From Nemertoderma westbladi (lineage: Eukaryota; Animalia; Xenacoelomorpha), in contig JAUCBJ010003225.1 in the NCBI GenBank assembly GCA_032718475.1, forward strand, positions 32,801 to 96,800: a stretch of 64,000 nucleotides of DNA, written 5' to 3'. Below are positions 25,190-63,451 of this stretch, in pieces (the first letter of the stretch is position 1; every line of letters starts with the position of its first letter). The notes under the pieces are model-generated. The model saw nothing but the letters and a program-made list of their open reading frames with translations, did no database searches and was not told the DNA's origin. The translations under genes and the position numbers were made by a program.

Positions 25190-25632
25190 GAACGAATTAT
25201 TTCGCGAAAAAATTAATTGTTTCTCGCAAAAATGAATTGTTTCGCGTAAAAATTAATTGTTTCGCGTAAAAATTAATTGTTTCGCGTAAAAATTAATTGT
25301 TTCGCATAAAAATTAATTGTTACGCGCAAAAATGAATTGTTTCGCGTAAAAATTAATTGTTTCGCGTAAAAATTAATTGTTTCGCGTAAAAATTAATTGT
25401 CACGCGCAAAAATGAATTGTTTCGCGTAAAAATGAATTGTTTCGCGTAAAAATGAATTGTTTCGCGTAAAAATTAATTGTTTCGCGTAAAAATTAATTGT
25501 TTCGCGTAAAAATTAATTGTTACGCGCAAAAATGAATTGTTTCGCGTAAAAATCAATTGTTTCGCGTAAAAATGAATTGTTTCGCGTAAAAATTAATTGT
25601 TACGCGTAAAAATTATTTGTTTCTCGCAATTA
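25190..25632 (+). repeat. 20-bp tandem array in left TIR (~21 copies)
   Basis: Unit AAAAATTAATTGTTTCGCGT. Confidence 0.95.
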
Positions 25633-25742: not shown

Positions 25743-26340
25743 TGGATCCGGAAGTCAGGTGAGGACCTTCGAATACGTAAGGGAAAGGCATGGGCAGCCT
25801 TGAATAGGCTTTCCAGGATTTGGAAGTCACCGAGAATTAATCGGAAACTGAAGGTCCGATTATTTATTTAGAGCAGCAGTAGTTCCAGTACTCCTCTACG
25901 GGAGTCCATGCTGGGCTCTAACTGCTGAGGACACCAAATCTCTGGATGGCACATTCACAAGAATGCTACGCCGGGTTCATTGTGTCATGTACAATGCACA
26001 CATTTCCAACCAGACACTATATAACATTCGAGGTGTCTCATTGGTTCCCCCAAGCTTGACACTAGAACAAAATCGCCTCCGCTTTGCAGGACATTGCTTT
26101 CGCCGTGAGGACCAGCCAGTGCATAAACTTGTACTTTGGCAGCCTCATGGAGTGAATAAGCATGGTGGACAGCCCATGACTTTCTTGAGACGCATCTTAA
26201 AGGACACTGGCCTTAAAGATGCGGATGATCTAGCAAATGTCATGGGTGATAGGGAGTTGTGGCGGTGCAATTGTGTTGACATGCCGGCACAGCATTCTTA
26301 AAAATGCAGCTGCAATGCAGCATGCCGATCCTAGTAGTAG
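25743..26340 (+). mobile_element. 5'-truncated young RTE LINE nested in the IS3EU element
   Basis: Near-identical to 11085-11640; (TAG)n tail; 8-bp TSD TGGTGCCT (25735-25742 / 26341-26348). Confidence 0.93.
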
Positions 26341-26403
26341 TGGTGCCTGGTTCACACAGAACTAACTGACTAACAAACTATTAACATAACTTCCGATAAC
26401 TTT

Positions 26404-27570
26404 TGTTCGCGCTTTTAAGACCTTTTGGCAGTTTAACCCGCCAAATCTATATTTCTTCTAGGTTATAAATCTACTTTAGCATAGGACAAGTATTGAACAC
26501 CTATAATAATTCTAACATTAGCCGAAGCCAGTCTGTGCGCGACCATTCACCCGCTGGATATACCCGGGAGACTGGATTCGGATGCTTTAATTTGATTGCG
26601 GTGCAGGCCTACCGTACTATTCGATTGATCGTTAATATATAATCTCTGACAAATATTATTCACTTTCGGGAAATATTAGCAGTTCCTTTAGGACGTGGCG
26701 CTCTATCTATTTAAACAGAGCTATGACTTACACTATACACAACGGTATGTCTTATAGATCACCAAAGTGCATTCTTTAGGAAATGCTTTGTTACTCGGTC
26801 AAACACACACAGACTATTGCACACAACTGCACATTGAATTGCCGATATTCACTGATTTTAATCATATATAAAGAAAATAACAACCGACATTTGTAGGGCC
26901 TATTAAGTAGCATTGAACTCATTACAAACCACGATAATGTATGTCGCAAATTGTTATATGTAACCGGTCTCTCTAACCTTAGTGTATCAAGAAGATTGGG
27001 GTTTCTGATCGTTTATCAATATTCTCCAATTAATAATATGCAAACGAATGATACAATTAACAACACAGTAAATAGCAGTAAATAATGCAAGTGTACTTAA
27101 CCAAGATAACAGTTTGATGATCTTATAATTAAAGACGCTCTAATGTTAGAAAACATTCCACGGCCGGTGTTCTTAGGCGTGGGGGAAACGTCAGTACTGA
27201 ATCATGGGATTCTGCTGTACAGCTTTTACACAAAGGGAAAATCTCTGATTGGTCGAACTGACGTGGACACAGCTGATAGATGTCGTCATTTGAGCTGAGC
27301 AGAACAAAGAACCAAGGCTCCGTGCAGAGGCTCCATGTGTACAGCTCAGCTATTAGCTGTCGTCATAGTAACTGCACTGTTTCAAGAGTATTTCGGCTTT
27401 TGCGTCATAGAATTGCGGATTATGTCCGCTAAAGTACACATACAGAAGAAATTACTTTTATGTCCTCTAAAACACCAGTACAGTAAGGACACGGCCTTTT
27501 ATGCCTGGTAAACCAACTACAGAGTACTTTACGGGGAAAATAACCGGCTAATTACGCAAAAGCCTTTACA
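26404..27570 (-). repeat. 3' LTR (1167 bp)
   Basis: TGTTCGCGC...GCCTTTACA, direct repeat of 36653-37814 and 59159-60359. Confidence 0.92.
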
Positions 27571-27580
27571 CCGCTCCCAG
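27571..27580 (-). other. Polypurine tract
   Basis: Minus strand CTGGGAGCGG abutting the TG of the 3' LTR; identical at 60360-60369. Confidence 0.75.
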
Positions 27581-27648
27581 AAAATGGGATTTAAGTCTAT
27601 AAAATATAACAAATCACAGTTTCTAAAATATAAAAATACTCTAAACAG

Positions 27649-29165
27649 TTAGTCTTTCTTACGCGGACGGCGTTTACGCAGCTTTTTGAGGCTAGCAAGA
27701 GTCCTTTTCTCTTTGGGGCGAGCCACTTTACTAGGAGGGCTGTAACTCCTGGGTGAAGGGTGCAATATGATTGCATCAGAAGGTGTAGGATTATGGTCGG
27801 GGTATCCGCCGTTTCGATATGCTTCTCCTCGAGCTGATTTTCCTCCGCTCGTAGCTGGATACGTTCATCCAAAAACTCTCGCAGAGAATAGGATCGTCCA
27901 AGTTCGATAACTTCTTAGAGATTCTGGATTTCCCGATCGAACTGAGATATAGTTACTTTGTTTACCGCTTGGACTTGCTAGTGCAATTTACATTTATCTG
28001 AACAAGCGTAAGTTCTTTTTCTGATCTTTGTAGAATAGCGTCTAACTCATTTGGTACAACGCTCTCCGCCACTTTGGTGACAGGTTATATCGTGTTAAGC
28101 CGGGACGATGGTAAGGGTTAAACGGCGATATTAAATGTCCGCATCCCAATCCGGCTAGGTAGGATGGGCTAATATCTAGGAAGCCTACAACCGGGTGCCA
28201 CCGACTAATTGTTCAGGTAACACTAGATCATTGAGCAGTGAGTACAGCTCGGGAGGATCCGTCATACTAATAGGATCAAGAGTCTGAGGTCTCACTAGGG
28301 AATGAGGAGGTCTGATCGAGTATTCCGAAACTCTGATCATTGGTTTATTTAAGGATCATCTGAGTCGAACGAGCGTAGGTGATACATCGAACAAGTTTCG
28401 CTCGAAACTCCCGTAAATATAGCGAGTAAAACCGTGTTTAAAGCAACGTCTCCGCGGATGTTTATGTCTTTTCGTTTGTTGGTTGGATCTTGGGCATTCA
28501 TTGCAATAATACCAAAGACGCACGTCTTGTAGGGGAAACGCGGGTGATCGTTCTCCAGTTTTACAATATTCCTCCATCTGATCGAAGCTATCCGGTACAA
28601 CAGGTAGCGGTTGATCGGCGGTAAGATACATCATAGTGGAATAGAGCCGTTTGAGTTCTACCATGCGGTCATGAGGTATACCTTGAGGATATCGAGTTTC
28701 TAGATTCTGTTGACTGGTAATATCGAGATAGGTTTCTCTCAAGAATTCCAGGTATTTGGTGAAGTCGCTGCGTTTATCCGGCTCTTCAACATCTGCACTT
28801 TCGAGTCGGTTTCGAATATAATTTTCGTGTTCGAGTTTCAGTTTATCGTTCCGCTTCCGCTGGGTAGGATATTTAAATAAAACCATTTCCCTTTTGGTGT
28901 CTATATCGTCCGTATCATGTAGGTCGATAGGATGACCAGTAGTTAAGAAGTCCATATACATACCATTACGATGCGTATAGCGAGCGGTAAATTTTCTACA
29001 GTCCAACCCACGCGCAAGTTGCTCCCGGGAGATTGGCGGTTAGATATAATGACCATCGTCCTCCGTAGTAGTTGGACCAGGTAACATCAAGCTATCAACA
29101 AACGCTTGTAAAGGTAGAGTATATCGCTCCCTGATACCAAGATCATCATCTATCAACTCAATCAT
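27649..29165 (-). pseudogene. Decayed accessory ORF (~500 codons) at the env position, unknown function
   Basis: ATG at 29165 (MIELIDDDLG...) reads through one TAA into ORF 29006-28356 and past its TGA (SLNKPMIRVSEYS...). After further stops and frameshifts it ends in NPTPSDAIILHPSPRSYSPPSKVARPKEKRTLASLKKLRKRRPRKKD*. Confidence 0.7.
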
Positions 29166-30801
29166 ATCTGCTATATAAGTTTATCCATATTATAATGAGT
29201 TTATATTTAGGCGAGTGGGCGTCGCTGCCTACCCCTCTCTGCCCCCGGACAGTGCGAGATCCTCAGCGCTGGTGTACTTTCGTCGATGTGCCTATCGCCA
29301 ACGTCGTAGCTGCACAACGACTACAACAACCAGCACAAGTCACTCCACCGTCCGTCCCAAAGGCTTAGATATACTTCAGGTTCTTACTGGAGAGTTAGGG
29401 CTACTTTCACAATTGCGACTCGCTACTGTAAACACACCTTAGTAGTAACATTCACCTACAAACGCACAAATTCCACGTAACAGTCACAAATGGTACACAT
29501 TCTATCACACATTCGGGTCATTTGTCCGTTAGTCAAGTGCCTTCCAGAATGTCACGTTGTTATTATGTATTCTTGGATACTAGCGGTGTGCTATTTATTC
29601 CGTATGCTATTCAATGAGCAAGCTTTTTATTATTCTGTTAACTCGCTTCTAATTCTAGCGTGGTTGTTGCTATGGTGACATTATGGAAAGCTAGCGGTAG
29701 AATTAGGGTAATTCCCATGCATACAGATCTGGGATGCTATTTAATAGTAAGTCTTTAATGGTCAATATCATCTTTATACATGATTGTATGAATTTTATCG
29801 GCTATTGACTCTATATTGGAGATTCTCGCACACTAATACACTTAAGAGGTGAATCTCCGCTCCCATGATCTATTAATTAATGGAATTTTGGGAATATTAT
29901 AAATTGTATAAAATAACAATTTATCAAATTCATTAAAAAATGAATTTAAATTTATTCCCGTAATTTTATTATTTAATATTAAATAAACACAATTTTATTC
30001 CAGAACAAGTCTGGGGACTGGGATCCTTGATTCTAGGGATTTGTCCTTTTAAGAGTATCGGTAAGTGCTACGATATCTTAATCGACTAGAATTTTAAAGG
30101 ATCTAAAATTTAAGATTTTGTAAATATTAATAATTAATATTTAGGATGGGCACCAGTTTATTCCAGAACTTGTCTGGGGACGTTAACCACTGATTCTAGA
30201 ATTTGTCTTTCAAGTATATTGGTGGGTGCCGCGATATCTTAATCGACAAGAATTGCAGATGGTCAAAGGGTTTAACAGATTTATTTTGCGTTATACGCTA
30301 CTGTTAAAAGGACATCACGCTACTATATGTATTATTTAATATACGGTATGAGAGCAATATCGCACGAAGCAATGTCAGTGAGAAGAGGCAAGTCGTTTCC
30401 AAGGTCTACCCAGAGCTTGGTTTAGCCGAGACACGAGGATCTGAACTTTGCATTCCTAATACTCTACTTTACCAATAATACTTGAATATAGTAGTGGCTT
30501 TATTGTACTTTAATAAGTACGGATATTTCATCTTACTGTAGTCACGTATTTATAATATGATACGGACAGTAAGGAAAAGAAAAAGAATTATTTCTCGCCG
30601 TCGCACTAAATATAATATATAAGTAATTAAGTAATAAACACTAATATATTGCACTAATCTACTAAATAATCACTAAATAACATTCTACTAAATAAAATTA
30701 AAGAAAACGATTATAATAAAATTACATAATAATACATACATAATATAAAATAATAAAAATAAATATAAAATAATGTAGTCACACACCCACTCCGTATGTT
30801 G

Positions 30802-33800
30802 TTACGTTATGGAGTCCCTAGATATTTGTTGGATTAGGGAGGTGGTCGTGGGAAGAGTATCTTGCCTTCCATAGTTTCCGGACAGTTTTCGGTCTCTTTC
30901 CAGTAAACATAAACGACCAGCTGGGCGATTGAGTGGTTGTGTTACTTTCTCCGCTCCCTTGGCCTGTCTAATCTTCACCGGGGTAAGATGAGGAGGCCAT
31001 TCATCTTCTTTACTTAGGAAGTCGTCCTCATCCCAGTTATAAGGTTCCACTTGGCTGGTCGCGAAGTTCTTTATCGCTACCATTTTTACTGACCTTATGC
31101 TGTGTTCTCCTAGTTCATCCTGGGGGGTGGACAACGCGCCTACATAATAATCCGCTATTACGGTAGATTTCCAAACCTGCATAATTCCTGACATGTTTAG
31201 CTTAGTTCGGAACTTGGGTTGTCCAGCAAAGATGTCTTCGGCTAGTTCTTTGTCGATGAATGTTCCTGTACTACCGAGTCAAGGAGGGTGTTCACTACAT
31301 AATTCCTTTTAGGTCCGTGGACCCTTACCTGGACTACAGGAAATTCTCGGATTCCTACATTGGAAGGTGGCGCTTTCCAAGATGGTTGTCTGTCAGAAGT
31401 AGTTAGGGGGAGCTCGCTGTCGGTGTCCTTTTCATACGTAAGTGCTCGATACACTGCGGTATTTGTCAGGTAACAGGATTCGTTTTCGTCGGAGAATTCG
31501 TCCGTATAGAATCCTTCCATCTCGGAATATTGGTCAGTGTCGTTCACATCACTGAATTGGACATGTAGTTCGGACTCACTTACCTGACTCGGGCTGTTTC
31601 GTTCGAATTCCGTGTGCAACAAGATATGATGTTTTGCGCCGCACTTTGCACACCTTGCGTCGGAGTAACAGGTTCGCCGTTGGTGTCCTCGTCTGAGGCA
31701 ATTATAACACAACCGCTTATCCCACATGACTTCACGTCTATCCTTTAGTGATTTCCTCAGGAATTCATCACACGCATTTAAACGGTGGGGCCCGTCGCAC
31801 AGCACACATTTGGGCTTGATGTTACTTACTTTAACATGTGCTGTGTGGTGCACGCTCGTTCTTTCCTCGGGCTTTCTCACCTGAATTCTCTTAGGAGACG
31901 TAGGAGGAGTTTTTCTTACCTGTTCTCTCCTGTCATTGGTTCGAGACTTGAATTTACTTATGTCCTTAGTTGCTTTGTTGTCATAGTAAGATCTTTCAGT
32001 GTCTTTCCCGCTGTCTTCCTCTTGAGAAGCCTGGCCTTCGCCGTCGTCGGTATAACACACTGGTATTACCCTTCTCCTAGAAACGGGTTTCTCACTTACC
32101 TTGTTTTCCGGTGTCTTCTCTCTGGACTGCCTTAGGAGCTGTAATTTCACTTCTCCATCTAAGAATGACATGAGATCAGCCATGGTAGGGTCTCGTCGTT
32201 GTTGTTCCATCATATATAACACTTTCTTATCCCAGCGTGTACCTACTCCACCCTTCGGTAAAGTAGAAGCCACGGCTCCAATAACCATAGAACTCTGATA
32301 TTCATGAGACTTACCTAACCAATCCAATTGTCTACAGATCTCCTGAATCTCATCGGAAAACTCTATTATCCCGCTGCTAATGAACTTTCGGGGCGCTACT
32401 AATTTTGCGTACAAATACTTAGCTATGTTATTCCTATTACCATACCTGATGTTTAGTGTATCCCAAACTTGTCTTAATCCGTCTGGATGTCCAATAAACT
32501 TTAACGCCATTAACTTGGGAGGTCCTTCCTTCGATGAGGAATCTAAGTTTCTCTCCATTAGATAATACAGAGTTCTGTATGTTATCTTTATAATATTCAT
32601 TAAAAGGTAACCATTTCATCTCATCTTCATTGAACTTGACTATCTCTCCCACCTTTACCGCTTGCCGGGCTTCGGTTCTAGCCATTTGACGCGTAAAACT
32701 TTCTTGGGCCATCGTGTTATTTAATATCGAATTATCGGTATATAAATTTCTCGGATTATGATCGGGTCTATAGGGAATATCATTATCAACAGGTCTATAA
32801 TTACCCTTAATAGGGTTCACTATAGGAGTTTCTACTTCGCTAGCAGTATATATGCGTGTAGGCTCCACACCTTGCGCATGAGATACTTCAGACCTAACAG
32901 GATGACACATGGTTACCGGGGGTGGTGGTATACCCTTTTGAGAATTTACTAATTTATCGCGTTCTAACGCGATACTTTGCTGCACTTCTTGCAACTCTAA
33001 CCTACTTTCCCTTACTGTGCCCTTGAATTGCTGAACGGTCTCCTGCATCTGCCCGAGCAGGAGATCCATCCCCCGCCGTCTCTCATCCACCCATTCGACC
33101 GCCGAAGCGGGAGTCGCCAATGTTGTAGCGGGCGGACGAGGGACAACGGGCGACAAATCATGAATATTTCGCTCGGAGTCCAGGGCATGAACTGTCTCAT
33201 GGGCTGTTCTGCAGGGCACAGGTAGCTTGGTGCTGTGCAAAGGGAATTTAGAGGTAGGTTCAGGGAGTACAGGTGTCTCTACCACTGAAAGGGTGGCTTC
33301 GGGAACAGGCCTAATTATTTCAGGCTCATCTACTATAGTAGGGAGTCTTTCTATTGTAATTATTTGGTCTGTGGGTTCTGTACTACCTAAGTTGGTGTTA
33401 TTTAGTTGCCTTCTAACAGCTGGAGGCAAATCAGGCAATTTCTGACGGTGGGATGTTCTTTTACGTCTGCTTAGGTGAGATCTATTTCCTTTGCCTTCAG
33501 TATCGGTGGTATCGCCTTCCTCAGATGATGTATATCCCTGTCTTTTGGGAGTAGATCGATTCATCGTCTGCATATTACTAGCTGTTAACTGTTTATTTAT
33601 GCAGTCTTGATTCTCCTGAATATTTTCCAATTCTAATTGGGCGATCTCTTCAGCCGCTCTCCATTCTGCTTCTGCCGCTGCCATTGCCGCTTTTTTTTCC
33701 ATTTCGGCTGCTTTTCTTTTCGCTTCTGCCTCTGCCGCTGCCGCTTTTCTTTCCATTTCGGCTGCTTTACTTTCCTCTTCGGCTGCTTTCCTTTCCGCTT

Positions 33801-34492
33801 CTGCAGCTGCTACTGCTGCTTTCTTTCTGTCTTCTATACGTTTTTTCTTTACTTGTTCTTCTTGGACTCTTGTGATGCGGAGTTGTTCATCAAATTTAGC
33901 TTGGTTCGCAGCTAACATTTCCGCATCGATTGCGTCCAGCACAAGCTTGGTTCCTTCACTATTAGGGCTAAGCCCCTCCAGCCTTCTCCTCAACTCTTCA
34001 TCTCCTACAAAGCGTTGATAGTCTGACAGATAGATGTCAATAGCATCCCTCTTATGCGGTTTCTCTGCTGTCACTTCGCTTTCTTCTTGAGAAAAAGTGG
34101 CGTCGGTTGATTCGTCATAGGTTGGCCGCTCATCATAAACCTTATCCGCCATCTTCGCTCCGCGTTCGGGCGTCCGCTCATCAGTATCCGAACTACTGGA
34201 GCTATCGGGCCGCTGAAAACTAGGTTCTTGGCTAGCTTGGTTTGACAGCTGCTTCTTGATCCCGCTTGACTTGGGCCCGAGTGCCGATGATAGACCTATG
34301 GTGTTCTACTAGCCTAGGGTCTGACACTACTTCTGTAGGGATGGCCTTTCTTACAGCAGGAGGTGACTTAGACTTGGATCTAGGATGTTCTATACTTGGA
34401 TCTGGGTCACTGATCTTTTTAAGACACTGTCTAACAGTCATTCTTACACTATCTAGGAGACTATCCGACAGTGATTGGGTTGTGTCAGACAT
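30802..34492 (-). pseudogene. gag: BEL/Pao Gag-aspartyl protease, frameshifted (ORFs 34492-34232, 34152-32437, 32600-31242, 31194-30802)
   Basis: Coiled-coil N-terminus; DUF1759-like KFNEDEMKWLPF...LSNGEKLRFL / WDTLNIRYG; triple knuckle CVLCDGPHRLNAC, CYNCLRRGHQRRTC, CAKCGAKHHILLH; protease PVVQVRV...TLLDS(GSTGTFI after a frameshift). Confidence 0.9.
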
Positions 34493-35789
34493 GTTTGTTT
34501 ACACAGTTGAATGCCTACGGCTATAAATACAGTTAAAGCAAGTCTAGTAATTCAGTATCACTGTTAGCCTAATAATTAATTACCGATACTGCTACTCAGT
34601 GGAGCGTGATATATACTGTATATAATATATTAGAATACCGGTATGCTTATAGTATATATAAGTATTATTACAGACTAGGTTTGTCACAGAATGCCGGTAG
34701 GTACTTTCAGCACAAATATATAAAAATATATAATAGGCCTATCGTGAATACCGGTATGCAATTTACACTTATAGTGTATATATATAAGTATAATTACAGA
34801 CTAGAATTAATTACAGAATACCGGTATAATTTCAGCCTAAAATTTATAGAAATAAATATAATAAGCCTATTGTAAATACCGGTATGTCAATTATTTTAGA
34901 ATTGAATTGAATTTCTGAATTTTAGGGGTTACTTGGTTACTTTAACTTACTTTATTACCGTTATTTAAGCAGTAGTCCAACTGATATTGAGACCTAATTG
35001 TTGTATGACAGGCCTACTATTTATAAATCGTTTGAGTTGATTTATAATATATATATACCCGTTTAATGGGTTTTGTCAATATTTGAAATAAATGTTATTA
35101 TTTCTGGGAAGGAGTCACTACACCGAAGCTGTACGCTCTCAGTGAAGTGCTACTTATTGAAACACTAAAACAAATAATCCTACTTTACCTAAGTTACTTA
35201 ATACTACAAATTACGTACAATTCGGGTTGAGATTACAATCTCTAAATAAACACAAAAAAAATTATAAATACACAAATACGAATTTTTTAGGGTAATTTTA
35301 CGAGGAATTTACTAACCAGCCTAACAAAGGGTTAGAATATCTGGTTATTACAACGGACAGGTTACTACGGTATTTGAAAATAATAAGTAGTAGTAAATAT
35401 ACTGCGCTGTCCAGATAGGAAAAATACCACCGTCTGACGACCTATAACCGTATCGCTATAGGTACTACGTTATGTATCACGGAGTGTTCCTACCTGGAAG
35501 TTAATTACTGCGGTCTACCAGAACCAACGTGCCTATTAACCACTTTACAACACAAATATACTGCCTACACACTAATCACCTTCGGAAAGTACTGTACACT
35601 AAACCCTAAATTAGGTACAAGTACTTGTACAACAAATAATTAGTAGTTAAAAATCTCCAGTCTTTACCTACGCCGAGCAGCCCTGATGTAGTACCGGGGT
35701 TAGTTTAACTATAACGGTATGTATAACAAGCACAATTACTGTAGGAATAAACTTGGGGAATGAATGTTGCGAATAATAGCATAAACTCT

Positions 35790-36372
35790 GAATAATAAAT
35801 ATTACGCTACGCGTACAAACTACTCAAACAAAATGCAGACTAAATACTGACAGACTACTATCAAGCCTAAACAAACCACGGTATGTGCAGACTCCGAAAT
35901 GGTTAGTTAGTATGCGTTCTAACCTAGTAGTACAACTTATTCTTTCACAGGGGGTTTACCTCACAGCACTGGAAGCCCCTACGTTCCCAACTGGCACTTT
36001 ATCGGACATACACTCCACACACACCGAAATTTCTTCAGACCTAGCAACAGCCAGACAACTATCCAGCCTACAAATTATCTAAATAAGAATTATACGCTAC
36101 CTGTACAGACTACACAAGCAAAGTACAGACCAAACGATGGCAGACTACTATCAAGCCTAAATAAACTACAGTATATGCAGACTCCGAAATGATTAGTTAG
36201 TATGCGTTCTAACCTAGTAGTACGACTTATTCTTTCACAGGTGGTTTACCTCACAGCGTTTGAAGCCCCTACGTTCCTAACTAGCACTTTATCGGACAGA
36301 TGCTCTACACACACTGCAATCCGTTCAGACTTAACAACAGTTAGACAACAGTCAAGCCTACAAATTATCTGT
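35790..36372. repeat. ~300-bp tandem duplication in the 5' UTR of the LTR element
   Basis: 35790-36080 and 36085-36372 share GACTACTATCAAGCCTAAA...GCAGACTCCGAAATG...CAAATTATCT. Confidence 0.9.
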
Positions 36373-36633
36373 ACAATCGGAGCAGGCTTACACGCCTTCT
36401 GCTCAATATTAACCTACAAGTAAATAAAACTGACAGAAATAAGTAAAATCTCAATAAAAAACCAGGGCTGCAGTCCCTGATTAATTATTAAGGCCTACCG
36501 GTATATAACTATCAAAATCGAATAATACTGCTGTACCTGTACTGCTGTAGGTACCGGTCCGGGTGATCAGGCAGTTAGGCCTACAGATTACCGGTCGACC
36601 GGTACTTTCGACTAGATTGCTTACACCGCAATC

Positions 36634-36652
36634 TAGAAGCTATATCCGTTAT
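36634..36652 (-). promoter_or_regulatory. Non-tRNA primer-binding-site position, complementary to the element's own LTR
   Basis: Element sense CA|ATAACGGATATAGCTTCTA with no TGG; inverted partner at 37370-37388. Confidence 0.65.
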
Positions 36653-37814
36653 TGTTTGAGCTTTTAAGACCTTTGGCAGTTTAACCTGCCAAATTAGGAT
36701 GTCTTCTAGATAATAGATAGTATTTAGCCTACGACAAATATTTGATACACTACATTAGCCGAAGCCAGTCTATGCGCGATCATTCACCCGCTGGATATAC
36801 CCGGGAGACTGGATTCGGAAGCTTAACTTGATTGGAGGTGTAAGCCTACTGTATTATTCGACTGATCGTAATATATAATCTCTGACAAATATTATTTACT
36901 TTCGGGAAATATTAACAGTTCCTTTAGGACGTGGCGCTCTAAATATATAAACAGAGTTATGACTTAAACCAGACGCAACGGGATGGCTATAGATTCACGT
37001 ATATGGCGCATTCTTTAGGAGATGCTTCGTTATCAATCACAATCATACACAATGCTGCACAATGCTGCACACCAATCTGCCGACCTTCACTAATTTTAGT
37101 CAGATACAAAGAGAATAACAGACAATACATGTAGGGCCTATAAAATAGCATTAGATTCACTTCAAACCACTTAATGTAAGTCGCAATCGTTATATGTATC
37201 CGGTCTCTCTAACCTTTAGTATATCAAGAAGATTGGGGTGTCTGATTGTTTATCAGTATTCCGAATATAATGTTCCATCAACAAATATAATGAATAACCG
37301 ACAGCAAAAGCAGTAATGTTAAGGTATGAATGATTATGTTATGGATAGTTAATATGATTAGTGAGTGAGATAACGGATATACGTTCTATAATTAAGCCTA
37401 CTAATGTTGATGCTAAAGACTGAAACACGGAGGTTCCACGCCGGTGTTGTAGGCTGTGGAAAAATCACATACTGACTCACTTCCCTAGTTTCTATATACC
37501 ATCTCCAACACAGAGGCAAAAAACGCTCTGATTGGTCGACCGAACAACGAGAGAACAAAGAACAAAGAAATGTTCGACATGGCAATATCAGCTGTTAGCC
37601 GTCGTCATGGTAGCCACACTGTTTTCAAGAGTATCCGGCTTATTGCGTCACAAAATTGCGGATTATGTCCGCTAAAGTACACATACAGAAGAAATTACTC
37701 TTTTGTCCTCTAAAACACCAGTACAGTAAGGACACGGCCTTTTTATGCCCAGTAAACCAACTACAGAGTACTTTACGGGGAAAATAACCGGCTAGTTACG
37801 CAAAAGCCTTTACA
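36653..37814 (-). repeat. 5' LTR (1162 bp)
   Basis: TGTTTGAGC...GCCTTTACA. Minus-strand TATATA (37498-37493) lies ~25 nt upstream of a TCAGT initiator-like motif (37475-37471); CCAAT near 37531-37535. Confidence 0.92.
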
Positions 37815-38244
37815 ACTTTTGCCTCAGTTGTGGTATCATGTTGCAGAATCTTTCATATCTTGAGTATCGCCTGATTTACATAGTGATAATAATCGACATA
37901 TTGTACAGTACGTATGGCGAGAAATTAAACTATATTGCATCACCATGAAGGGGTATGAATGGGTAAGGACCATGAAATGCCATGGCGAGACCAGCCGATT
38001 CTTCTTCCAGAGATGAGTTGCTTCAAAGGCTTGAAATTCAATATAACATTATCTCATTATACCCTACTCCTTGCGCAGGACAACCAGTGGCTGACTGTAC
38101 AAGTGATTATAAGGACGACCTGCCTTGCCACTTGGTGATGGTCTCCGTTGGTTGTTGTACCGGTCGTTTTCTCGTAACACATTTCTACTTCCAGCCAACC
38201 TTGCTCTGGTCGTTGCCCAGTCGCGTGTAGAATATGGCGCAAAA

Positions 38245-38950
38245 ATACGCGATTAATATTTAGCGAAACAATTAATTTTTGCGCGAAACAATTTATTTTT
38301 GCGCGAAACAATTAATTTTTGCGCGAAACAATTAATTTTTGCGCGAAACAATTAATTTTTGCGCGAAACAATTAATTTTTGCGCGAAACGATTAATTTTT
38401 GCGCGTAACAATTAATTTTTGCGCGAAACGATTAATTTTTGCGCGTAACAATTAATTTTTACGCGAAACAATTAGTTTTCGCGTGTAACAATTAATTTTT
38501 ACGCGAAACAATTAATTTTTACGCGAAACAATAAATTTTTGCGCGAAACAATTAATTTTTGCGCGAAACAATTAATTTTTGCGCCTTAATAATTAATTTT
38601 TGCGCGTAATAATTAATTTTTGCGCGTAACAATTAATTTTTACGCGAAATAATTAATTTTTACGAGAAACAATTAATTTTTACACGAAACAATTAATTTT
38701 TGCGCGAAACGATTAATTTTTGCGCGTAACAATTAATTTTTACGCGAAACAATTAATTTTTGCGTGTAACAATTAATTTTTACGCGAAACAATTAATTTT
38801 TGCGCGAAACAATTAATTTTTGCGCGAAACAATTCGTTTTTGCGCGTAACAATTAATTTTTACGCGAAATAATTAATTTTTACGCGAAACAATTAATTTT
38901 TGCGCGAAACATTAAATTTTTGCGCGAAACAATTAATTTTTGCGCGTAAT
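38245..38950 (-). repeat. 20-bp tandem array in right TIR (~35 copies)
   Basis: Unit GCGCGAAACAATTAATTTTT, reverse complement of the 25190-25632 unit. Confidence 0.95.
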
Positions 38951-39412: not shown

Positions 39413-39833
39413 TATCAAGATGTGAATGTCCCAATATTGAATCCACTCCAATGTTAAGGATTTCGTAGACATCACAAGTCCAAACTCTATAAACTTTATC
39501 TCCATTATTTATTTCCAAACAATGAAGACATGTTATCGCATATGGACGCAATATTAAAGTTTCACTATTTAAGGAGCTACTTTATGACATACATTTAGTA
39601 TCAATATTCAATATTTTAATACGAGTGATATTATTGATCGTTTTAAATTATTTTTGCCATGTTGAATTAATTTCGATTGATATTATTGGTCGTTTTAAAT
39701 AATGTTTCAAAAATGCATTATTTTGCTTAATAGTATAGGTTGATTTAAAACATGTTGTCTGTTGAATTATTTTGCTTGATATTTAATTATTTCAACCGAT
39801 AATTATAGAATTATAGGTAGTTTTAAATGAGAC

Positions 39834-42800
39834 AGTGAATTATTTCGACCTATAATTATATGTCGTATTAAATGTGATCAGCTGACATTGAATTATTTCG
39901 ACCTATAATTATATGTTGTATTAAATGTGATCAGCTGACATTGAATTATTTCGACCAATAATTATATGTTGTATTAAATGTGATCAGCTGACATTGAATT
40001 ATTTCGACCTATGATTATTGGTCGTATTAAATGTGATCAGCTGACAGTGAATTATTTCCACCTATAATTATATGTTGTAAATGTGATCAGCTGACAGTGA
40101 ATTATTTCAACCTATAATTATTGGTCGTATTAAATGTGATCAGCTGACATTGAATTATTTCCACCTATAATTATATGTTGTATTAAATGTGATCAGCTGA
40201 CAGTGAATTATTTCGACCTATAATTAATTATTGGTCGTATTAAATGTGATCAGCTGACAGTGAATTATTTCCACCTATAATTATATGTTGTAAATGTGAT
40301 CAGCTGACAGTGAATTATTTCCACCTATAATTATTGGTCGTATTAAATGTGATCAGCTGACATTGAATTATTTCGACCTATAATTATATGTTGTAAATGT
40401 GATCAGCTGACAGTGAATTATTTCGACCTATAATTATATGTTGTATTAAATGTGATCAGCTGACAGTGAATTATTTCCACCTATAATTAATTATTGGTCG
40501 TATTAAATGTGATCAGCTGACATTGAATTATTTCGACCAATAATTATATGTTGTATTAAATGTGATCAGCTGACAGTGAATTATTTCGACCAATAATTAT
40601 ATGTTGTATTAAATGTGATCAGCTGACAGTGAATTATTTCCACCTATAATTAATTATTGGTCGTATTAAATGTGATCAGTTGGCATTGAATTATTTCCAC
40701 CTATAATTATATGTTGTATTAAATGTGATCAGCTGACAGTGAATTATTTCCACCTATAATAAATTATTGGTCGTATTAAATGTGATCAGCTGACATTGAT
40801 TTATTTCCACCTATAATTATATGTTGTAAATGTGATCAGCTGACAGTGAATTATTTCCACCTATAATTAATTATTGGTCGTATTAAATGTGATCAGCTGA
40901 CAGTGAATTATTTCCACCTATAATTATATGTTGTAAATGTGATCAGCTGACATTGAATTATTTTGATGTATAATTATATGTTGTAAATGTGATCAGCTGA
41001 CAGTGAATTATTTCCACCTATAATTAATTATTGGTCGTATTAAATGTGATCAGCTGACAGTGAATTATTTCGACCTATAATTATATGTTGTAAATGTGAT
41101 CAGCTGACAGTGAATTATTTCCACCTATAATTAATTATTGGTCGTATTAAATGTGATCAGCTGACATTGAATTATTTCCACCTATAATTATATGTTGTAA
41201 ATGTGATCAGCTGACAGTGAATTATTTCCACCTATAATTAATTATTGGTCGTATTAAATGTGATCAGCTGACAGTGAATTATTTCGACCTATAATTATAT
41301 GTTGTAAATGTGATCAGCTGACAGTGAATTATTTCCACCTATAATTAATTATTGGTCGTATTAAATGTGATCAGCTGACATTGAATTATTTCCACCTATA
41401 ATTATATGTTGTAAATGTGATCAGCTGACAGTGAATTATTTCCACCTATAATTAATTATTGGTCGTATTAAATGTGATCAGCTGACATTGACTTATTTCC
41501 ACCTATAATTATATGTTGTAAATGTGATCAGCTGACAGTGAATTATTTCCACCTATAATTAATTATTGGTCGTATTAAATGTGATCAGCTGACAGTGAAT
41601 TATTTCGACCTATAATTATATGTTGTAAATGTGATCAGCTGACAGTGAATTATTTCCACCTATAATTAATTATTGGTCGTATTAAATGTGATCAGCTGAC
41701 ATTGAATTATTTCCACCTATAATTATATGTTGTAAATGTGATAAGCTGACAGTGAATTATTTCCACCTATAATTAATTATTGGTCGTATTAAATGAGATC
41801 AGCTGACATTGAATTATTTCCACCTATAATTATATGTTGTATTAAATGTGATCAGCTGACATTGAATTATTTCCACCTATAATTAATTATTGTTCGTATT
41901 AAATGTGATCAGCTGACAGTGAATTATTTCCACCTATAATTATATGTTGTATTAAATGTGATCAGCTGACATTTAATTATTTCCACCTATAATTATATGT
42001 TGTAAATGTGATCAGCTGACAGTGAATTATTTCGACCTATAATTATATGTTGTATTAAATGTGATCAGCTGACATTGAATTATTTCCACCTATAATTAAT
42101 TATTGGTCGTATTAAATGTGATCAGCTGACAGTGAATTATTTCGACCTATAATTATATGTTGTAAATGTGATCAGCTGACAGTGAATTATTTCCACCTAT
42201 AATTAATTATTGGTCATATTAAATGTGATCAGCTGACATTGAATTATTTCCACCTATAATTATATGTTGTAAATGTGATCAGCTGACAGTGAATTATTTC
42301 CACCTATAATTAATTATTGGTCGTATTAAATGTGATCAGCTGACATTGAATTATTTCCACCTATAATTATATGTTGTATTAAATGTGATCAGCTGACATT
42401 GAATTATTTCCACCTATAATTAATTATTGGTCGTATTAAATGTGATCAGCTGACATTGAATTATTTCCACCTATAATTATATGTTGTAAATGTGATCAGC
42501 TGACAGTGAATTATTTCCACCTATAATTAATTATTGGTCGTATTAAATGTGATCAGCTGACATTGAATTATTTCCACCTATAATTATATGTTGTATTAAA
42601 TGTGATCAGCTGACATTGAATTATTTCCACCTATAATTAATTATTGGTCGTATTAAATGTGATCAGCTGACAGTGAATTATTTCCACCTATAATTATATG
42701 TTGTATTAAATGTGATCAGCTGACATTTAATTATTTCCACCTATAATTATATGTTGTAAATGTGATCAGCTGACAGTGAATTATTTCCACCTATAATTAT

Positions 42801-45800
42801 TTATTGGTCGTATTAAATGTGATCAGCTGACATTGAATTATTTCCACCTATAATTAATTATTGGTCGTATTAAATGTGATCAGCTGACATTGAATTATTT
42901 CCACCTATAATTATATGTTGTATTAAATGTGATCAGCTGACATTGAATTATTTCGACCTATAATTATATGTTGTAAATGTGATCAGCTGACAGTGAATTA
43001 TTTCCACCTATAATTAATTATTGGTCGTATTAAATGTGATCAGCTGACATTGAATTATTTCCACCTATAATTATATGTTGTATTAAATGTGATCAGCTGA
43101 CATTGAATTATTTCGACCAATAATTATATGTTGTATTAAATGTGATCAGCTGACATTGAATTATTTCCACCTATAATTAATTATTGGTCGTATTAAATGT
43201 GATCAGCTGACATTTAATTATTTCCACCTATAATTATATGTTGTAAATGTGATCAGCTGACATTGAATTATTTCCACCTATAATTAATTATTGGTCGTAT
43301 TAAATGTGATCAGCTGACATTTAATTATTTCCACCTATAATTATATGTTGTAAATGTGATCAGCTGACAGTGAATTATTTCGACCTATAATTATATGTTG
43401 TATTAAATGTGATCAGCTGACATTGAATTATTTCCACCTATAATTAATTATTGGTCGTATTAACTGTGATCAGCTGAGAGTGAATTATTTCGACCTATAA
43501 TTATATGTTGTAAATGTGATCAGCTGACAGTGAATTATTTCCACCTATAATTAATTATTGGTCGTATTAAATGTGATCAGCTGACATTGAATTATTTCCA
43601 CCTATAATTATATGTTGTAAATGTGATCAGCTGACAGTGAATTATTTCCACCTATAATTATATGTTGTAAATGTGATCAGCTGACATTTAATTATTTCCA
43701 CCTATAATTATATGTTGTAAATGTGATCAGCTGACATTGAATTATTTCCACCTATAATTAATTATTGGTCGTATTAAATGTGATCAGCTGACATTGAATT
43801 ATTTCCACCTATATTTATATGTTGTAAATGTGATCAGCTGACATTGAATTATTTCCACCTATAATTATATGTTGTAAATGTGATCAGCTGACATTGAATT
43901 ATTTCCACCTATAATTATATGTTGTATTAAATGTGATCAGCTGACATTGAATTATTTCCACCTATAATTAATTATTGGTCGTATTAAATGTGATCAGCTG
44001 ACATTGAATTATTTCCACCTATAATTATATGTTGTAAATGTGATCAGCTGACAGTGAATTATTTCCACCTATAATTAATTATTGGTCGTATTAAATGTGA
44101 TCAGCTGACATTGAATTATTTCGACCTATAATTATATGTTGTAAATGTGATCAGCTGACATTGAATTATTTCCACCTATAATTATATGTTGTATTAAATG
44201 TGATCAGCTGACATTTAATTATTTCCACCTATAATTATATGTTGTAAATGTGATCAGCTGACAGTGAATTATTTCGACCTATAATTATATGTTGTATTAA
44301 ATGTGATCAGCTGGCATTGAATTATTTCGATGTATAATTATATGTTGTAAATGTGATCAGCTGACAGTGAATTATTTCCACCTATAATTAATTATTGGTC
44401 GTATTAAATGTGATCAGCTGACAGTGAATTATTTCGACCTATAATTATATGTTGTAAATGTGATCAGCTGACAGTGAATTATTTCCACCTATAATTAATT
44501 ATTGGTCGTATTAAATGTGATCAGCTGACATTGAATTATTTCCACCTATAATTATATGTTGTAAATGTGATCAGCTGACAGTGAATTATTTCCAACTATA
44601 ATTAATTATTGGTCGTATTAAATGTGATCAGCTGACAGTGAATTATTTCGACCTATAATTATATGTTGTAAATGTGATCAGCTGACAGTGAATTATTTCC
44701 ACCTATAATTAATTATTGGTCGTATTAAATGTGATCAGCTGACATTGAATTATTTCCACCTATAATTATATGTTGTAAATGTGATCAGCTGACATTGAAT
44801 TATTTCCACCTATAATTATATGTTGTAAATGTGATCAGCTGACAGTGAATTATTTCCACCTATAATTAATTATTGGTCGTATTAAATGTGATCAGCTGAC
44901 ATTGAATTATTTCCACCTATAATTATATGTTGTAAATGTGATCAGCTGACAGTGAATTATTTCCACCTATAATTAATTATTGGTCGTATTAAATGTGATC
45001 AGCTGACAGTGAATTATTTCGACCTATAATTATATGTTGTAAATGTGATCAGCTGACAGTGAATTATTTCCACCTATAATTAATTATTGGTCGTATTAAA
45101 TGTGATCAGCTGACATTGAATTATTTCCACCTATAATTATATGTTGTAAATGTGATCAGCTGACAGTGAATTATTTCCACCTATAATTAATTATTGGTCG
45201 TATTAAATGTGATCAGCTGACATTGAATTATTTCCACCTATAATTATATGTTGTATTAAATGTGATCAGCTGACATTGAATTATTTCCACCTATAATTAA
45301 TTATTGGTCGTATTAAATATGATCAGCTGACATTGAATTATTTCCACCTATAATTATATGTTGTAAATGTGATCAGCTGACAGTGAATTATTTCCACCTA
45401 TAATTAATTATTGGTCGTATTAAATGTGATCAGCTGACAGTGAATTATTTCCACCTATAATTATATGTTGTATTAAATGTGATCAGCTGACATTTAATTA
45501 TTTCCACCTATAATTATATGTTGTAAATGTGATCAGCTGACAGTGAATTATTTCGACCTATAATTATATGTTGTATTAAATGTGATCAGCTGACATTGAA
45601 TTATTTCCACCTATAATTAATTATTGGTCGTATTAAATGTGATCAGCTGACAGTGAATTATTTCGACCTATAATTATATGTTGTAAATGTGATCAGCTGA
45701 CAGTGAATTATTTCCACCTATAATTAATTATTGGTCGTATTAAATGTGATCAGCTGACATTGAAATATTTCCACCTATAATTATATGTTGTAAATGTGAT

Positions 45801-54590: not shown

Positions 54591-55615
54591 ACGGTACACC
54601 GCGCGGTGTATCGCAGGGCCAGCGGTACACCGCTGACTGTGAACGACACAACAGGTAGTTGTGTGCTAAACCGCGCGGTTTACCGCAGCCCCTTTAAACA
54701 ATGTTAAAACAATTAATGTAATTTCCTGTTTAATTCACAGTCTACAGATAGACAATCAGTTACCGCAAGGGTACCGTTGGGTGTGAACGGGTACCGGGTA
54801 GTGTACCGCTGGCTTACCGCTTCAATACCGCCAGACTACTTTACCGCTCACGCACCGTTGGATGTGAATATAAATGCTGAGATGGGATTCACGTCATTGA
54901 ATTTTTGCTCCGGGTGGGTAAAGTTTTGATCGCAAAAGACAGAATGGTTACAAGGTTTCACAAAAAAGCCATTGTGGGTGCAAAATGCAGATTGCTCCAC
55001 TGGCTAGAACAGGCCTCTTTCTTATTAGGTGGTGCGAAATTCAAATTATAATAATAGCATTAATAACAGTAGTCACAGTCAGTCAGTCAAATTTGGCACC
55101 CGGTAGGAAAAGTTTTTATTGCACAAGACACAATGGCTACAAGGTTTTACCAATTAAGACATTGGATGTGCTAAATGCAGATAGCACCACTGGCTTCAAA
55201 AGAGACCTCTTATAAGTGGTGGGAAATACCAATTGTAATATGAGCAGTATTACAGTATCAGTCAGACACTCAGTCATCAACCTGCAATAGCCATCTTCTT
55301 TCAGTATTGTAGTAGTCTAATTGTAATTTTCTCTGTGGGACTCCTGGATTCCAGGATTCTAATTTGTTTGTAAACCCAAACTGCCTTACCCTGTAGTATG
55401 AAGGTATATAGTATGCAGGTACCAATATAGGTATACACACATATAGGCCTAACATTTTATATCTGATAGGCCAATTCATGTAAAGTAGCAATCTAGCTGT
55501 GCCTACCAAATTGCCTATTATTTTGCTATGCTTTATACCATTTGACTGTTGGAGGTGCTTTATAACATTATCTTACTGGGTTGGACTAGGCCTTCAGATA
55601 ATAGGAGAAATCAAT

Positions 55616-58825: not shown

Positions 58826-60437
58826 GTACCGGTACCTACCTGCCTACTCCTGCACTGGAATATAAAGAGCTGGGTCCTGGTTAAGTACCTACCCTGGTAG
58901 GTGCCGGTAGCTGTCCCGGTGCTACCACACTTAACTTAGGCCTACTACTGTACTTTATTTATTAGTTGTCGGCTTAGGCTAGGCCTGATCTGATAAGAAA
59001 TGAATACCCTATTTAATTTCGCGACATTTTTATTCAATAATTTCGGGAATTTTCTTATAGAAAAGCAACGCGTAGGTAATTTTATCTAAAATTTGGTACC
59101 CGGTGTTATTTTTTTGTGCTCTTTCTATTTCCAACTGTGTTCGATTGTGTTCGGCATTTGTTCGCGCTTTCAGACCTTTGGCAGTTTAACCCGCCAAATT
59201 AGGATGTCTTTTAGATAATAAATCACTTTTAGCCTCTGACAAGTATTTGATTCACTACACTAGTCGAAACCAATCGGTGCGCGATCATTCACCCGCTGGA
59301 TATACCCGGGAGATTGGGTTCGACGGCTTAATCTTATTGCTATGTAAGCCTAATGTATTATTCGACTGACAGTATTATATAATCTCTGACAATATTATTC
59401 ACCTTCGGGGAATATTAACAGTTCCTTTAGGACGTGGCGCTCTATCTATATAAACAGAGTTATGACTTAAACTACTCACAACGATATGGCTTAGTTATAA
59501 TTCACATATATGGTGCATTCTTTAGGAAATGCTTCGTTATCAGTCTCACTCATACACAATGCTGCACAATACTGCACACTAATCTGCCGATCTTCACTGA
59601 TTTTAGTCACATATAAAAGGAACACAGACCGACTCATGTAGGGTCTATCAAATAACATTAGATTCACTTCAAACCACTTTAACATAAGTCACAATCGTTA
59701 TATGTAACCTTTCTCTCTTACCTTCGGTATATCAAGAATATTGGGTTTCGGGGTTATTTCTCGTTATTCCAAATATAATAATTCATCAACCATATTATGA
59801 AGGCCCGACAGTAAATAGCAGTATAACAATATAAAGTATGCACAGTGTTACACAGTATGCAGTGTCAGTAAGATATTAAATCAGATAACGGATATATGTC
59901 CTTATAATTAAGCCTACTAGTGTTAGGCTAAAACAGAAAAGCACAAAATATTCCCAAGCCGCTCTCTCCTGGCTCAGGACAGAATGTAAACACTGCCCAT
60001 AACGCATTGCGTGATTTCTAGGAAATTTCTGTACAAGAGCCATAAAAATGCTCTGATTGGCTGACTGAACTGAGAGATGCCGTAGAACAAAGAAAATCGA
60101 CACGTATGAATATCAGCTGTTAACCGTCGTCATAGTAACTACTGTTCAAGAGTAGCTATCACCTTTTGCGTCACGGAATTGCCATAGAATCATCAACTAT
60201 GCCTTTCACAGTACACATACGGAGGAAATAGCTCTTAGATCCTCTAAAAAACACCGATACAGCAATAATACGGTCTCTTACACCTATTAAATCAACTACA
60301 GAGTATTTTAATGTAAAAGATAATAAAAATAACGGGGCAATTCAGCAAAGGCTTTTACACCGCTCCCAGAAAATGGGATTTTCAGTCTATAAAATATAAA
60401 AATCACAGTTTCTAAAACCTAAAGATACTCTAAACAG

Positions 60438-61289
60438 TTAGTCTTTCTTACGCGGACGGCGTTTACGCAGTTTCTTGAGGCTAGCAAGAGTCCTTTTCTC
60501 TTTGGGGCGAGCCACTTTACGAGGAGGGCTGTAGCTCCTAGGCGAAGGGTGCAATACAATTGCATCAGAAGGTGTAGGGTTACGATCGGTATACCCGCCG
60601 GTCGAAGTACCTGGTTGATTAATATCAACCTCGGGGGAGCGAGGTCTAACGGCCTTGAGAGCGCGTCTCAGGACAGCAGCTCCTACTGGTCCTTGACGGG
60701 TCGTCTGGACACTAGCGGTGGGTGGACCGTGAGTGGTGAGGAACTTTCTCGGTTTAATGGTTCCTTCCAGCTCGCGTTCTCGGGTTCGATATTCATATGG
60801 TCGCCGAGATACTTCCTGTAGTTCAGGATGCAAGTTCACAAAGATGTCGCCATACTCAGGGTCCTGACGGATAAAATTGATCAGGTGATATGTGGTTATA
60901 TCATTAGGGTTAACGTTTCTAAGGTATTTTCTGACAAACTTGGTGGAAATACACTCACCAACACGCTTCATTAACTCGTAACTTGGTACGCGTGTTTTCT
61001 GTTCAATCGACGCGAATAGATAAGGATGGAACGCGTAAACTCCCTCGTAAGCTCGTCCAGGGTAATAGCGATGTCGGGATTCGCAATGTAAATCCGCGTT
61101 CGCTTCCCAAGCTCGGATGTATCGCAGGGTGATCATCTCGTCTACGCTCTCTAAATCGCGATTAAAGGGACAATTGTAACTTTCATGTCCTTTAAGTTGA
61201 CAGTAGTGACATTGAGTCATAAATTGTGGGCAGACGGCAAAAATATGAGAGTTATTAAGCCGGCAATAAGCACAATATATTTCCATCAT
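60438..61289 (-). CDS. Intact 283-aa accessory ORF with two CCHC zinc knuckles and a basic NLS-like C-terminus
   Basis: CAYCRLNNSHIFAVC and CHYCQLKGHESYNC; ends ...RPKEKRTLASLKKLRKRRPRKKD* just upstream of the PPT. Confidence 0.75.
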   Translation of the reverse strand: MMEIYCAYCRLNNSHIFAVCPQFMTQCHYCQLKGHESYNCPFNRDLESVDEMITLRYIRAWEANADLHCESRHRYYPGRAYEGVYAFHPYLFASIEQKTRVPSYELMKRVGECISTKFVRKYLRNVNPNDITTYHLINFIRQDPEYGDIFVNLHPELQEVSRRPYEYRTRERELEGTIKPRKFLTTHGPPTASVQTTRQGPVGAAVLRRALKAVRPRSPEVDINQPGTSTGGYTDRNPTPSDAIVLHPSPRSYSPPRKVARPKEKRTLASLKKLRKRRPRKKD

Positions 61290-63451
61290 CGGTTGTTCGA
61301 GGAAATAGGAACAAGGTACGCTCGAGTCTAGAGGGGTGAAGTGGTCTCTCGATGCGCATAATCGACAACGTTTTCGAGAAACGTTGTAAGGGTCCAGTAG
61401 TATACCGCTTACCAGATCCTAGTAACGATGTATCTTACTATGAGACTCTAGTAATGTATACGGGCTCGTACAGTATCTGACAACAAATCCCAGTCCAGGA
61501 TATCTAAACAAGCAGATACAATACACAAACGACTACTGGCGAGGAACAGAGCCTTGTATCTATTCTATGTACGTGAGCGGGTCTAATGCCTACGTACTAG
61601 ACAGAAGGATACCTGTCCTCTAACCGGTGAGGCAGATGTACAGTTACAGTAACAGACCAAACTCACGGGAAAACAATCCCCGCGCAGGGAATCCTAACTA
61701 TCACTGACAGTCCTAAATACAGTAACTTGCCGCGGTGTGATTTATATGGGTTATATACGAACTAGGTGGTTAACAGACCTAGTGTAACAATGCTGATTAC
61801 CCCTGTCTAAATCAGCCTAAAAGGTCGTGCCTAAATGTAACGATAACTGATCCCCCTGTACGAAATCAGTCTAAAGGGTCAGGCCTAAATGTAACAATAA
61901 CTGCTGGATAGAAATCAACAGTTTAATAACGAAAGTGAAATACTCCTTATCGCCGCAACTAAATCAGATCCTAATTTTACAAATACAGATAATTTCCACC
62001 TAAAGTAATGTATAGTGCGCTATAGCTAGTAGAACTTTAAGGGCAATATGTTTTAGGGCGTGTGTGTGTGGGTGTGTTACAAATAAAACAATTTCGTGTA
62101 ATTCCTTTTACTAGGTTTTAGTGATTTTCTGACTAAATGATACCGTGCGCTAGCTACTAAAATAAACTAGTCGCGTTCCTAGAACTTTATACTCACGAAT
62201 GACGTCAAAGCTCTCTCCTTCCTATCCACAACCCAATGGGCAACCACAGTGTTAGTAACTACACCCGTGATCGGCACTAATACCAGATTCTGGTTGTAAG
62301 ATAAGAATAGGGGTTAATCGCTACCGTACGTTAGCTGATCTGGTATACTAATTTAATTCTAGAACTTTGTTGCTGCGGTAGTTAGCAGCAATACCTATCA
62401 GTACGTGGCAAGGCGCGGTAGGATATTAATAAACCTCCCTAGGCCAAGCAGTGTGCCGGTAGCAGAAATGCTCCTTGCCTGATCAAATAGCTAACTCCAG
62501 GCAGGGGGGGGGGGGGTACTAATGTACGTTCTACAAAGCGAACCGGTACCAAACAGTCAGTGCTATGAATCACTAAATTATGGAACATATGCTGTCCGTA
62601 CCTAATATGTACTCGCGTACTGACGAATGGCAATAGTTCGCACCTGTAGGAAGTACAGGTTAACCCAGGGGTTCGTAGGACTGACAAAGGGGGGGGGGGG
62701 TGTCTGGATATAATTATTTGATCCTAAATTTGCGGCGTCCAGTACGGTGTCACGCTTACCCTGATCTATAGGTCTTACGGCGGGCAAGGGCGTCGAACAA
62801 AGTCTTACCTTCTCACAAAGCGGGCGCTGCATAGCAAGTGGAGTATTTCGAAGGGGCAAAGGGGGTGCGCGGTCAATCCAATGTGGGTGCTAGCGTGTTG
62901 TGGACATCTCTTCCCTGCGTTGCTTACGGCCTAACGGTCTAGGCTGCCATCTCCCTGATGTTTGGCTGTCCCAAAGTTGGACCAAAAGAAAACATGTCAG
63001 GAATTTGCAGTATATTTACAGTTTTACAAAGGGATTTATCAAATAAAGTTTCAACAAGAAACCGAAATAAACTAATAACAATTTAGGAATTTGCAAGAGT
63101 AAGGTGGCGTTATACATAGTATAAGGTGGTAATAACGTGATAACCGAAGGCAAACCGGCCTTTTATACTAGAAATTGCACATGGAAACTAAACAGAATTT
63201 TCCACAGCTTCACATTTGAGCATTAAAGTGCTTCGTGCCCTATGATTGGCCCAGCTCATCGTTCAACGCAGTCCGGCCCTTACACTAATCTGGGACATGG
63301 AATCCTAACAGAATTTTCCACTGCCTCACATTTGAGCAATAAGATAATTTATGCCCTATGATTGGCCTGGCTCATCATTCGCTACGCTGTACGCTTCTCA
63401 TTGGCCTACCAATTAGCACCACACGAAAATAAATGGCCCCAAAATACAAAT

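Follow-up and report, generated by a model that had tools for sequence, protein, structure and literature searches.

What primes minus-strand DNA synthesis in an LTR retrotransposon without a tRNA-type primer-binding site (PBS) is the question raised by an element on the minus strand of the window, the whole stretch of 64,000 nucleotides analysed. As the initial annotation had pointed out, no tRNA-type PBS follows its 5′ LTR; the leader has no TGG for 188 nt, the first being at +189. The reading favoured here, with a probability of roughly 0.8, is that a high-copy BEL/Pao family would prime minus-strand synthesis with its own RNA, working like Tf1, and it is as a candidate for such self-priming, drawn from sequence comparison, that the element is described.

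Because AAAGT stands both left of LTR1 (37815..37819) and right of LTR2 (26399..26403), a target-site duplication for which the chance of a 5-mer match is ~0.002, 37814-26404 reads as one insertion, that of a non-autonomous BEL/Pao derivative classed by its Gag only. Three related LTRs lie in the window, all of them, like the other features of the element given below, on the minus strand: LTR1, the 5′ LTR (36653..37814; 1162 nt, TG...CA), LTR2, the 3′ LTR, which is of a different subfamily type (26404..27570), and LTR3, the 3′ LTR of a second copy (59159..60359). LTR2 and LTR3 are identified as 3′ LTRs by an identical short purine tract directly before each (GGGAGCGG at 27571..27578 adjoining LTR2, and 60367-60360), a tract that LTR1 is without. 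A misplaced LTR boundary was considered and is ruled out by the three agreeing LTR ends, the target duplication and the polypurine tract (PPT). The interior passes from a leader of ~2 kb, holding a two-copy tandem repeat of 290 nt (35787..36370, no strand assigned), through two overlapping gag-like frames, a protease broken at its start and non-coding DNA to a broken 3′ ORF. LTR1 and LTR2, the LTRs of a single target-duplicated insertion, are 78% alike overall, with 91.5% over the first 225 nt (37814-37590 versus 27570-27346) and 52-83% elsewhere, an unevenness suggesting that subfamilies later underwent conversion or cDNA recombination with one another. The family is abundant: in three DNA runs, the contigs aligning to LTR1 plus leader number 11,053, 5,848 and 2,846.

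The assignment to BEL/Pao made in the initial annotation is borne out by a Gag triple Cys-His box and by relatives with DUF1759 and Peptidase_A17. A long open frame of 622 aa from stop to stop, with a charged coiled-coil-like stretch (32437..34305), is probably the N-terminal part of gag. The C-terminal part lies in a different frame (31242..32615) with a weak DUF1759, the triple box at ~31808-31614 and, at its end, LLDS, a candidate start of the protease motif LLDXG; the remaining protease-like region resumes in a separate frame (30802..31278), the gene being broken near 31275. All three motifs of the BEL/Pao hallmark box (CX2CX3-4HX4C, CX2CX2-4HX4-5C and CX2-4CX3HX4H in the consulted part of PMC554778) are present in frame 32615-31242, which has 9,470 relatives at E ≤ 0.001. 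Among 20 long relatives chosen from the best 150, 18 have DUF1759, 15 have Peptidase_A17 and one has no family; two word-seeded protein searches with the Gag piece gave no match at E ≤ 0.001, and viral contigs searched with an alignment of 10 BEL/Pao proteins contained no relative. Matches of 150 relatives by tblastn are confined in the window to 31398-32540, and the copy is therefore without RT, RNase H and integrase, no such Pfam family occurring in 37814-26404; the lack of an RT by which to place the element within BEL/Pao counts against the assignment. As in the Belpaoviridae there is a triple Cys-His Gag box with an HH doublet, what may be an LLDxG-type protease start, TG...CA LTRs of ~1.2 kb, a short PPT and a target duplication. 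The ICTV profile describes BEL/Pao replication as tRNA-primed, with an 18-nt PBS for tRNA-Arg or tRNA-Gly (PMC8742986), whereas this copy has no 18-nt PBS for the 3′ end of either tRNA, nor RT, RNase H or integrase. The broken extra 3′ ORF of the main element (27649..29039) and an open Cys/His-rich 3′ ORF of 326 aa before LTR3 (60438..61418; no Pfam family) are mostly different, having in common a basic tail of ~50 aa.

The PBS position, 36641..36652, is 0 nt from the LTR end and has no TGG. Its complement is the candidate self-primer at 37370..37381 (LTR nt 434-445), 36652-36641 pairing exactly with 37381-37370, so that the 12 of 12 matches originally claimed and the would-be primer 3′ end exactly at the LTR boundary both stand. 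Since this complement is unbroken at the DNA level, a primer assembled across a splice junction need not be invoked. The letters of the claimed 17/19 extension through TAGAA (37388-37384) are likewise as given, but these 5 bp are private to LTR1 and not conserved, and are not retained as part of the primer. The motif is inside the LTR as stated, at 717 nt from motif end to LTR end rather than the ~730 nt first proposed, and a loop of that length between motif and PBS is long, a point against self-priming. The identical 12-mer recurs in LTR3 (59896-59885) between differing flanks, as had been noticed, and belongs to a conserved island that includes TTAATTATA (37370..37399), 93% alike between LTR1 and LTR3 against 55% in its neighbours. 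The working criterion of Neumann 2019 for self-priming is a complementarity of at least 10 bp placed 0-5 bp after the LTR (PMC6317226, in its consulted sections); here it is 12 bp at offset 0, and 11 bp in a second PBS type introduced below.

Chance, or a functionless DNA-level event such as a small inversion or template switch, might produce such a match in a copy that is old, broken and mosaic (37814-26404) and in sequence that is AT-rich. The 12-mer is, however, present in only 8 of 20,000 dinucleotide-shuffled versions of LTR1 (a rate of 4e-4; 19 of 20,000 with offsets 0-5 allowed), and among 9,041 interior positions tested the true PBS position alone has a 12-nt complement in LTR1. With the motif forming an island between much less similar flanks, two partners covarying with it and four predicted changes observed, this explanation is largely refuted and retains very little probability. 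The missing TGG is no private deletion either, since contigs of runs X1, X2 and X3 align through the window-type 12-mer. There is no tRNA gene in the window, and no convincing Rfam match within 26000-38200.

The homologous site in LTR2, 27117-27106, carries a variant of the candidate primer (27106..27116), from which the initial annotation had forecast a second, LTR2-type PBS. The stretch 36622-36686 was examined with the contigs aligned to it, 220 in total (X1 100, X2 72, X3 48, X6 0; X1 and X2 are from one sample). Of the 16 loose-end rows, one from X2 (before 36648; 3 contigs, agreement 0.94) has the letters of the window's plus strand at 27106-27116, 11 of 11, and differs from the window PBS at all four places forecast beforehand from the LTR2 motif. 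The forecast thus came true for 11 of its 12 letters, the four changes included, and failed for the 12th, which is mismatched and counts against it. For the six free letters of the junction a chance match has a probability of 3.4e-4 per junction, with 220 contigs aligned, and the 11-mer has its complement in LTR2 only. A 153-nt contig, taken as belonging to the variant row, extends more than 31 letters on each side of the junction, and by eye the letters beyond the junction look like window leader, not random flank. The variant junction is absent from the rows of X1, although that run is of the same sample, and of X3, so that it is present in one of the three runs with contigs; also against it, the junction comes from short contigs of X2 and the motif from LTR2 of the window, not from one molecule. 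Five further rows (36652-36653) and another two (36649) have the appearance of unrelated flanks, belonging to 3′ or solo LTRs; others start at 36641, 36637 or 36628, which means that contigs span the window-type 12-mer in three DNA runs. There are then two motif types, the only two compared, each with a matching PBS type, and candidate primer and PBS covary, as seen in one run and three contigs. It is these matched types that lend support to the self-priming first proposed.

In the mechanism envisaged, a stretch of 11-12 nt in the 5′ LTR would pair, as RNA, with the PBS abutting the LTR end, and RNase H from an autonomous partner would cut the motif at its 3′ side to yield the primer, as in Tf1. 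The enzymes would act in trans, the copy encoding only Gag and a broken protease. In LTR replication the 3′ end of the primer sets the LTR boundary, and it is precisely at this boundary that the helix terminates. When the primer is copied into the plus strand, changes in the motif would be expected to pass into the PBS.

Further pairing is predicted beside the PBS. For the 29 nt after it, the best partner is one and the same segment of U5 in every LTR (36820..36851, read as 36851-36820, in LTR1, 26583..26614, read as 26614-26583, in LTR2 and 59349-59325 in LTR3), in a pretzel-like arrangement with the leader immediately 3′ of the PBS; the U5 segment is annotated as 36820..36845 in LTR1 and 26588..26605 in LTR2. 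Among 151 control pieces, 8 attain the LTR1 energy, which counts against this helix; by eye, 12 of 13 places can pair between the X2 variant junction and 26605-26593 of LTR2. In each of the three LTRs a terminal stem-loop of U5 is predicted 13 nt from the LTR end (36666..36705, core 36692-36673, in LTR1), and a leader hairpin of 9 bp (36612..36636) is an alternative to the U5 helix. Together the U5 helix and the motif:PBS helix make a pseudoknot, which is outside the model of the folding program. Tf1 has three duplexes forming a ‘pretzel’ beside its PBS (10.1101/2022.12.06.519325, in the portion available), where the leader 3′ of the PBS pairs with a U5 segment, an arrangement that the predicted helices resemble; in the present element a stem-loop is predicted 5′ of the PBS.

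The most distinctive part of the system is a predicted helix inside the LTR. In whole-LTR folds of all three LTRs the motif and ~10 nt before it find their partner 340-370 nt downstream, in a stretch interrupted by a hairpin. In LTR1 this predicted inner partner consists of 37034-37028 and 37004-36987 (36987..37034), separated by a conserved hairpin at ~37025-37008; that of LTR2, with compensating changes, consists of 26794-26789 and 26766-26752 (26752..26794), and that of LTR3 is at 59541-59495. Pair probabilities are mostly 0.6-1.0, and in a fixed register 14 of 14 core pairs form in each of the three. Between LTR1 and LTR2 there are six two-sided and two one-sided changes, and with partners swapped 9 of 14 are paired, for which the naive chance is 5.5e-4 with the register drawn from the same folds. 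Cognate interaction energies are -14.5, -13.1 and -13.6 kcal/mol, matched by 1, 2 and 0 of 290 control windows. Non-cognate pairs number six: five give -3.8 to -6.9, and the sixth, LTR1 motif with LTR3 segment, which are of the same type, -15.5. The four letters that differ between motif types are, on these data, matched in both the PBS and the inner segment.

The PBS helix and the inner helix are mutually exclusive, and the inner segment is predicted to be a decoy for the primer motif. Copies of the motif with U3 letters on their 5′ side would be hidden by the inner helix, such as the one at the 3′ end of the RNA, which would otherwise compete for the PBS; if transcription begins upstream, the helix might serve instead as a switch. 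A fuller proposal, advanced tentatively and at slightly worse than an even chance, is that BEL/Pao self-priming is gated by the decoy: the motif would coevolve with the PBS and with a split PBS mimic 350 nt downstream, and either the 5′-end copy alone would prime or priming would await refolding in the particle.

A motif with two mutually exclusive partners also resembles an RNA switch, and the pairing might be a regulatory or packaging structure, with priming left to a host RNA, for example half a tRNA. Ty1/copia is known to have half-tRNA primers that involve no TGG (PMC6317226, same sections), and half-tRNA priming is the type of Osser, Bryco and Bianca. The two PBS types, however, differ at 4 of 11 letters, each matching its own LTR, so that two host RNAs would be needed with the ends of both copied in LTRs, and the helix ends at the exact LTR boundary, which a primer 3′ end sets. 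The involvement of a host RNA is accordingly judged quite improbable, and self-priming remains the preferred reading.

Where in the RNA the motif lies bears on how self-priming would operate. The TATA at 37498 that was proposed earlier is not kept in LTR2 or LTR3 and is set aside. CCAAT is conserved 135-164 nt before the motif, and TCAGT occurs 94 nt (LTR1) and 83 nt (LTR2) before it; in LTR1 and LTR2 these two signals are consistent with transcription beginning 83-94 nt upstream of the motif, which counts against a Tf1-like position at the RNA 5′ end. There is no conserved TATA 25-30 nt before the motif in the three LTRs. One fold series gave the PBS helix a probability of 0.88-0.97 for starts up to 6 nt upstream of the motif and at most 0.04 from 10 nt; a start site deduced from this sharp switch was dropped, as the switch moved with the chosen 3′ end. 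Other folds count against priming: for RNA starts at least 20 nt upstream, the inner helix wins over the PBS helix in all four settings of the global folds; when the leader is taken to 36500, its greatest length, the probability of motif:PBS pairing is 0 at every start; and with the start at the motif the motif:PBS helix lies 7.8 kcal/mol above the best nested fold, a penalty due in part to the pseudoknot with the U5 helix that the program cannot model. A start at or just before the motif, which concealment of the 3′ copy by the inner helix requires, and a start further upstream combined with a structural switch are given about even odds.

The same LTR motif might alternatively be upstream of the start, and act as primer from the copy at the RNA 3′ end, from a second packaged RNA or from a short transcript of a solo LTR. 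Covariation is silent on which RNA copy pairs, and TTAATTATA is conserved 10-18 nt before the motif in the three LTRs; if it is a TATA box, the start falls after the motif. The inner helix accounts for part of TTAATTATA, however, and in an RNA that retains U3 the motif is predicted to be bound up in that helix. A cut in the 3′ copy would also, under standard LTR replication, lose the R region needed for first strand transfer. Priming from another copy of the motif thus seems improbable, and the 5′ copy stays the preferred source.

In Tf1 the RNA's first 11 bases pair with the PBS and an RNase H cut between bases 11 and 12 frees the primer (PMC7175516, available part). Tf1/Tf2 of Schizosaccharomyces pombe, Tj1, Tf1/sushi and Tcn1, Ty3/gypsy chromoviruses, likewise have an 11-12-nt PBS abutting the LTR CA and complementary to an LTR segment, and the Tf1 group has extra helices, resembling those predicted here, between PBS-adjacent sequence and the LTR downstream of the primer; the parts consulted of the sources for both (PMC7175516, PMC4600332, 10.1101/2022.12.06.519325) describe no covarying primer decoy for Tf1 such as is predicted here. 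The present element differs from the Tf1 group in its BEL/Pao-type Gag, its non-autonomy and the 717 nt from motif to PBS, and from Tf1 in that the primer there is the first RNA bases, whereas the candidate motif here may lie at the start of the transcript or further inside it. Tf1/sushi elements have a Ty3/gypsy Gag-Pol and a chromodomain integrase; with its BEL/Pao-type Gag and no integrase, the element is not a member; the feature itself is real, and is probably a variant of the known self-priming mechanism. The TAR lineage of Ty1/copia (Houba, Osr-1) comprises predicted self-primers by the 10-bp criterion that holds here also (PMC6317226, in the sections consulted), in another superfamily and another host kingdom. 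In the consulted portions of PMC6317226, PMC4600332, PMC5341516, PMC2864245, PMC5006619 and PMC3601003, self-priming stands as a reported property of Tf1/sushi and Tcn1 and as a prediction for the TAR lineage. No report of it for BEL/Pao was found in the literature covered, which took in few subscription papers and Repbase entries; the BEL/Pao survey PMC3118150 makes no mention of PBS, primer or tRNA, nor does PMC12440569.

If the reading is true, tRNA-free initiation would extend to all three LTR superfamilies, Ty3/gypsy, Ty1/copia and BEL/Pao, with a bearing on whether self-priming is ancestral or arose repeatedly. One further BEL-type element, Cer7 of C. elegans, has reportedly been proposed to encode its own primer, which is said to be an internal tRNA-like sequence, in contrast to the LTR motif here. 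Self-priming elements would, we infer, evade PBS-based detection, and would probably not present the usual target for silencing by tRNA fragments. The decoy helix would suggest, in a form open to testing, how the second copy of the primer in a self-priming RNA is kept from interfering. Newly described are the covarying inner partner predicted in three LTRs and the predicted leader:U5 pairing, neither of which had a place in the initial annotation.

Two blocks, 36939-36916 and 36815-36782, are near-invariant across the three LTRs, and the former has the peak contig depth, also in organism B; they are perhaps poly(A) or packaging signals, AATAAA being absent from all three LTRs. Run X6, from another organism and guessed to be RNA, has 114 contigs on the LTR and none on the PBS stretch 36622-36686. 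A 28-nt LTR pattern had no matches among viral contigs, and the single match of a 19-nt LTR pattern, to a bacterial-looking metagenome contig, was rejected as chance. Outside both ends of the element lies a 20-nt minisatellite, in opposite orientations (25195-25623 and 38252-38946), and a 14.8-kb satellite with units of 50/53/57 nt and a higher-order period of 107 nt occupies 39831-54591. An RT/DUF6451 frame followed directly by Mutator-like transposase pieces lies on the plus strand at 55484-58244, and its RT/DUF6451 segment is repeated at 11085-11635, at 25743-26345 and in shorter pieces. At 15849-17786, also on the plus strand, an uninterrupted frame of 645 aa has both GH20 beta-hexosaminidase domains; animal genes seldom lack introns, and the frame may be a retrocopy or a transfer.
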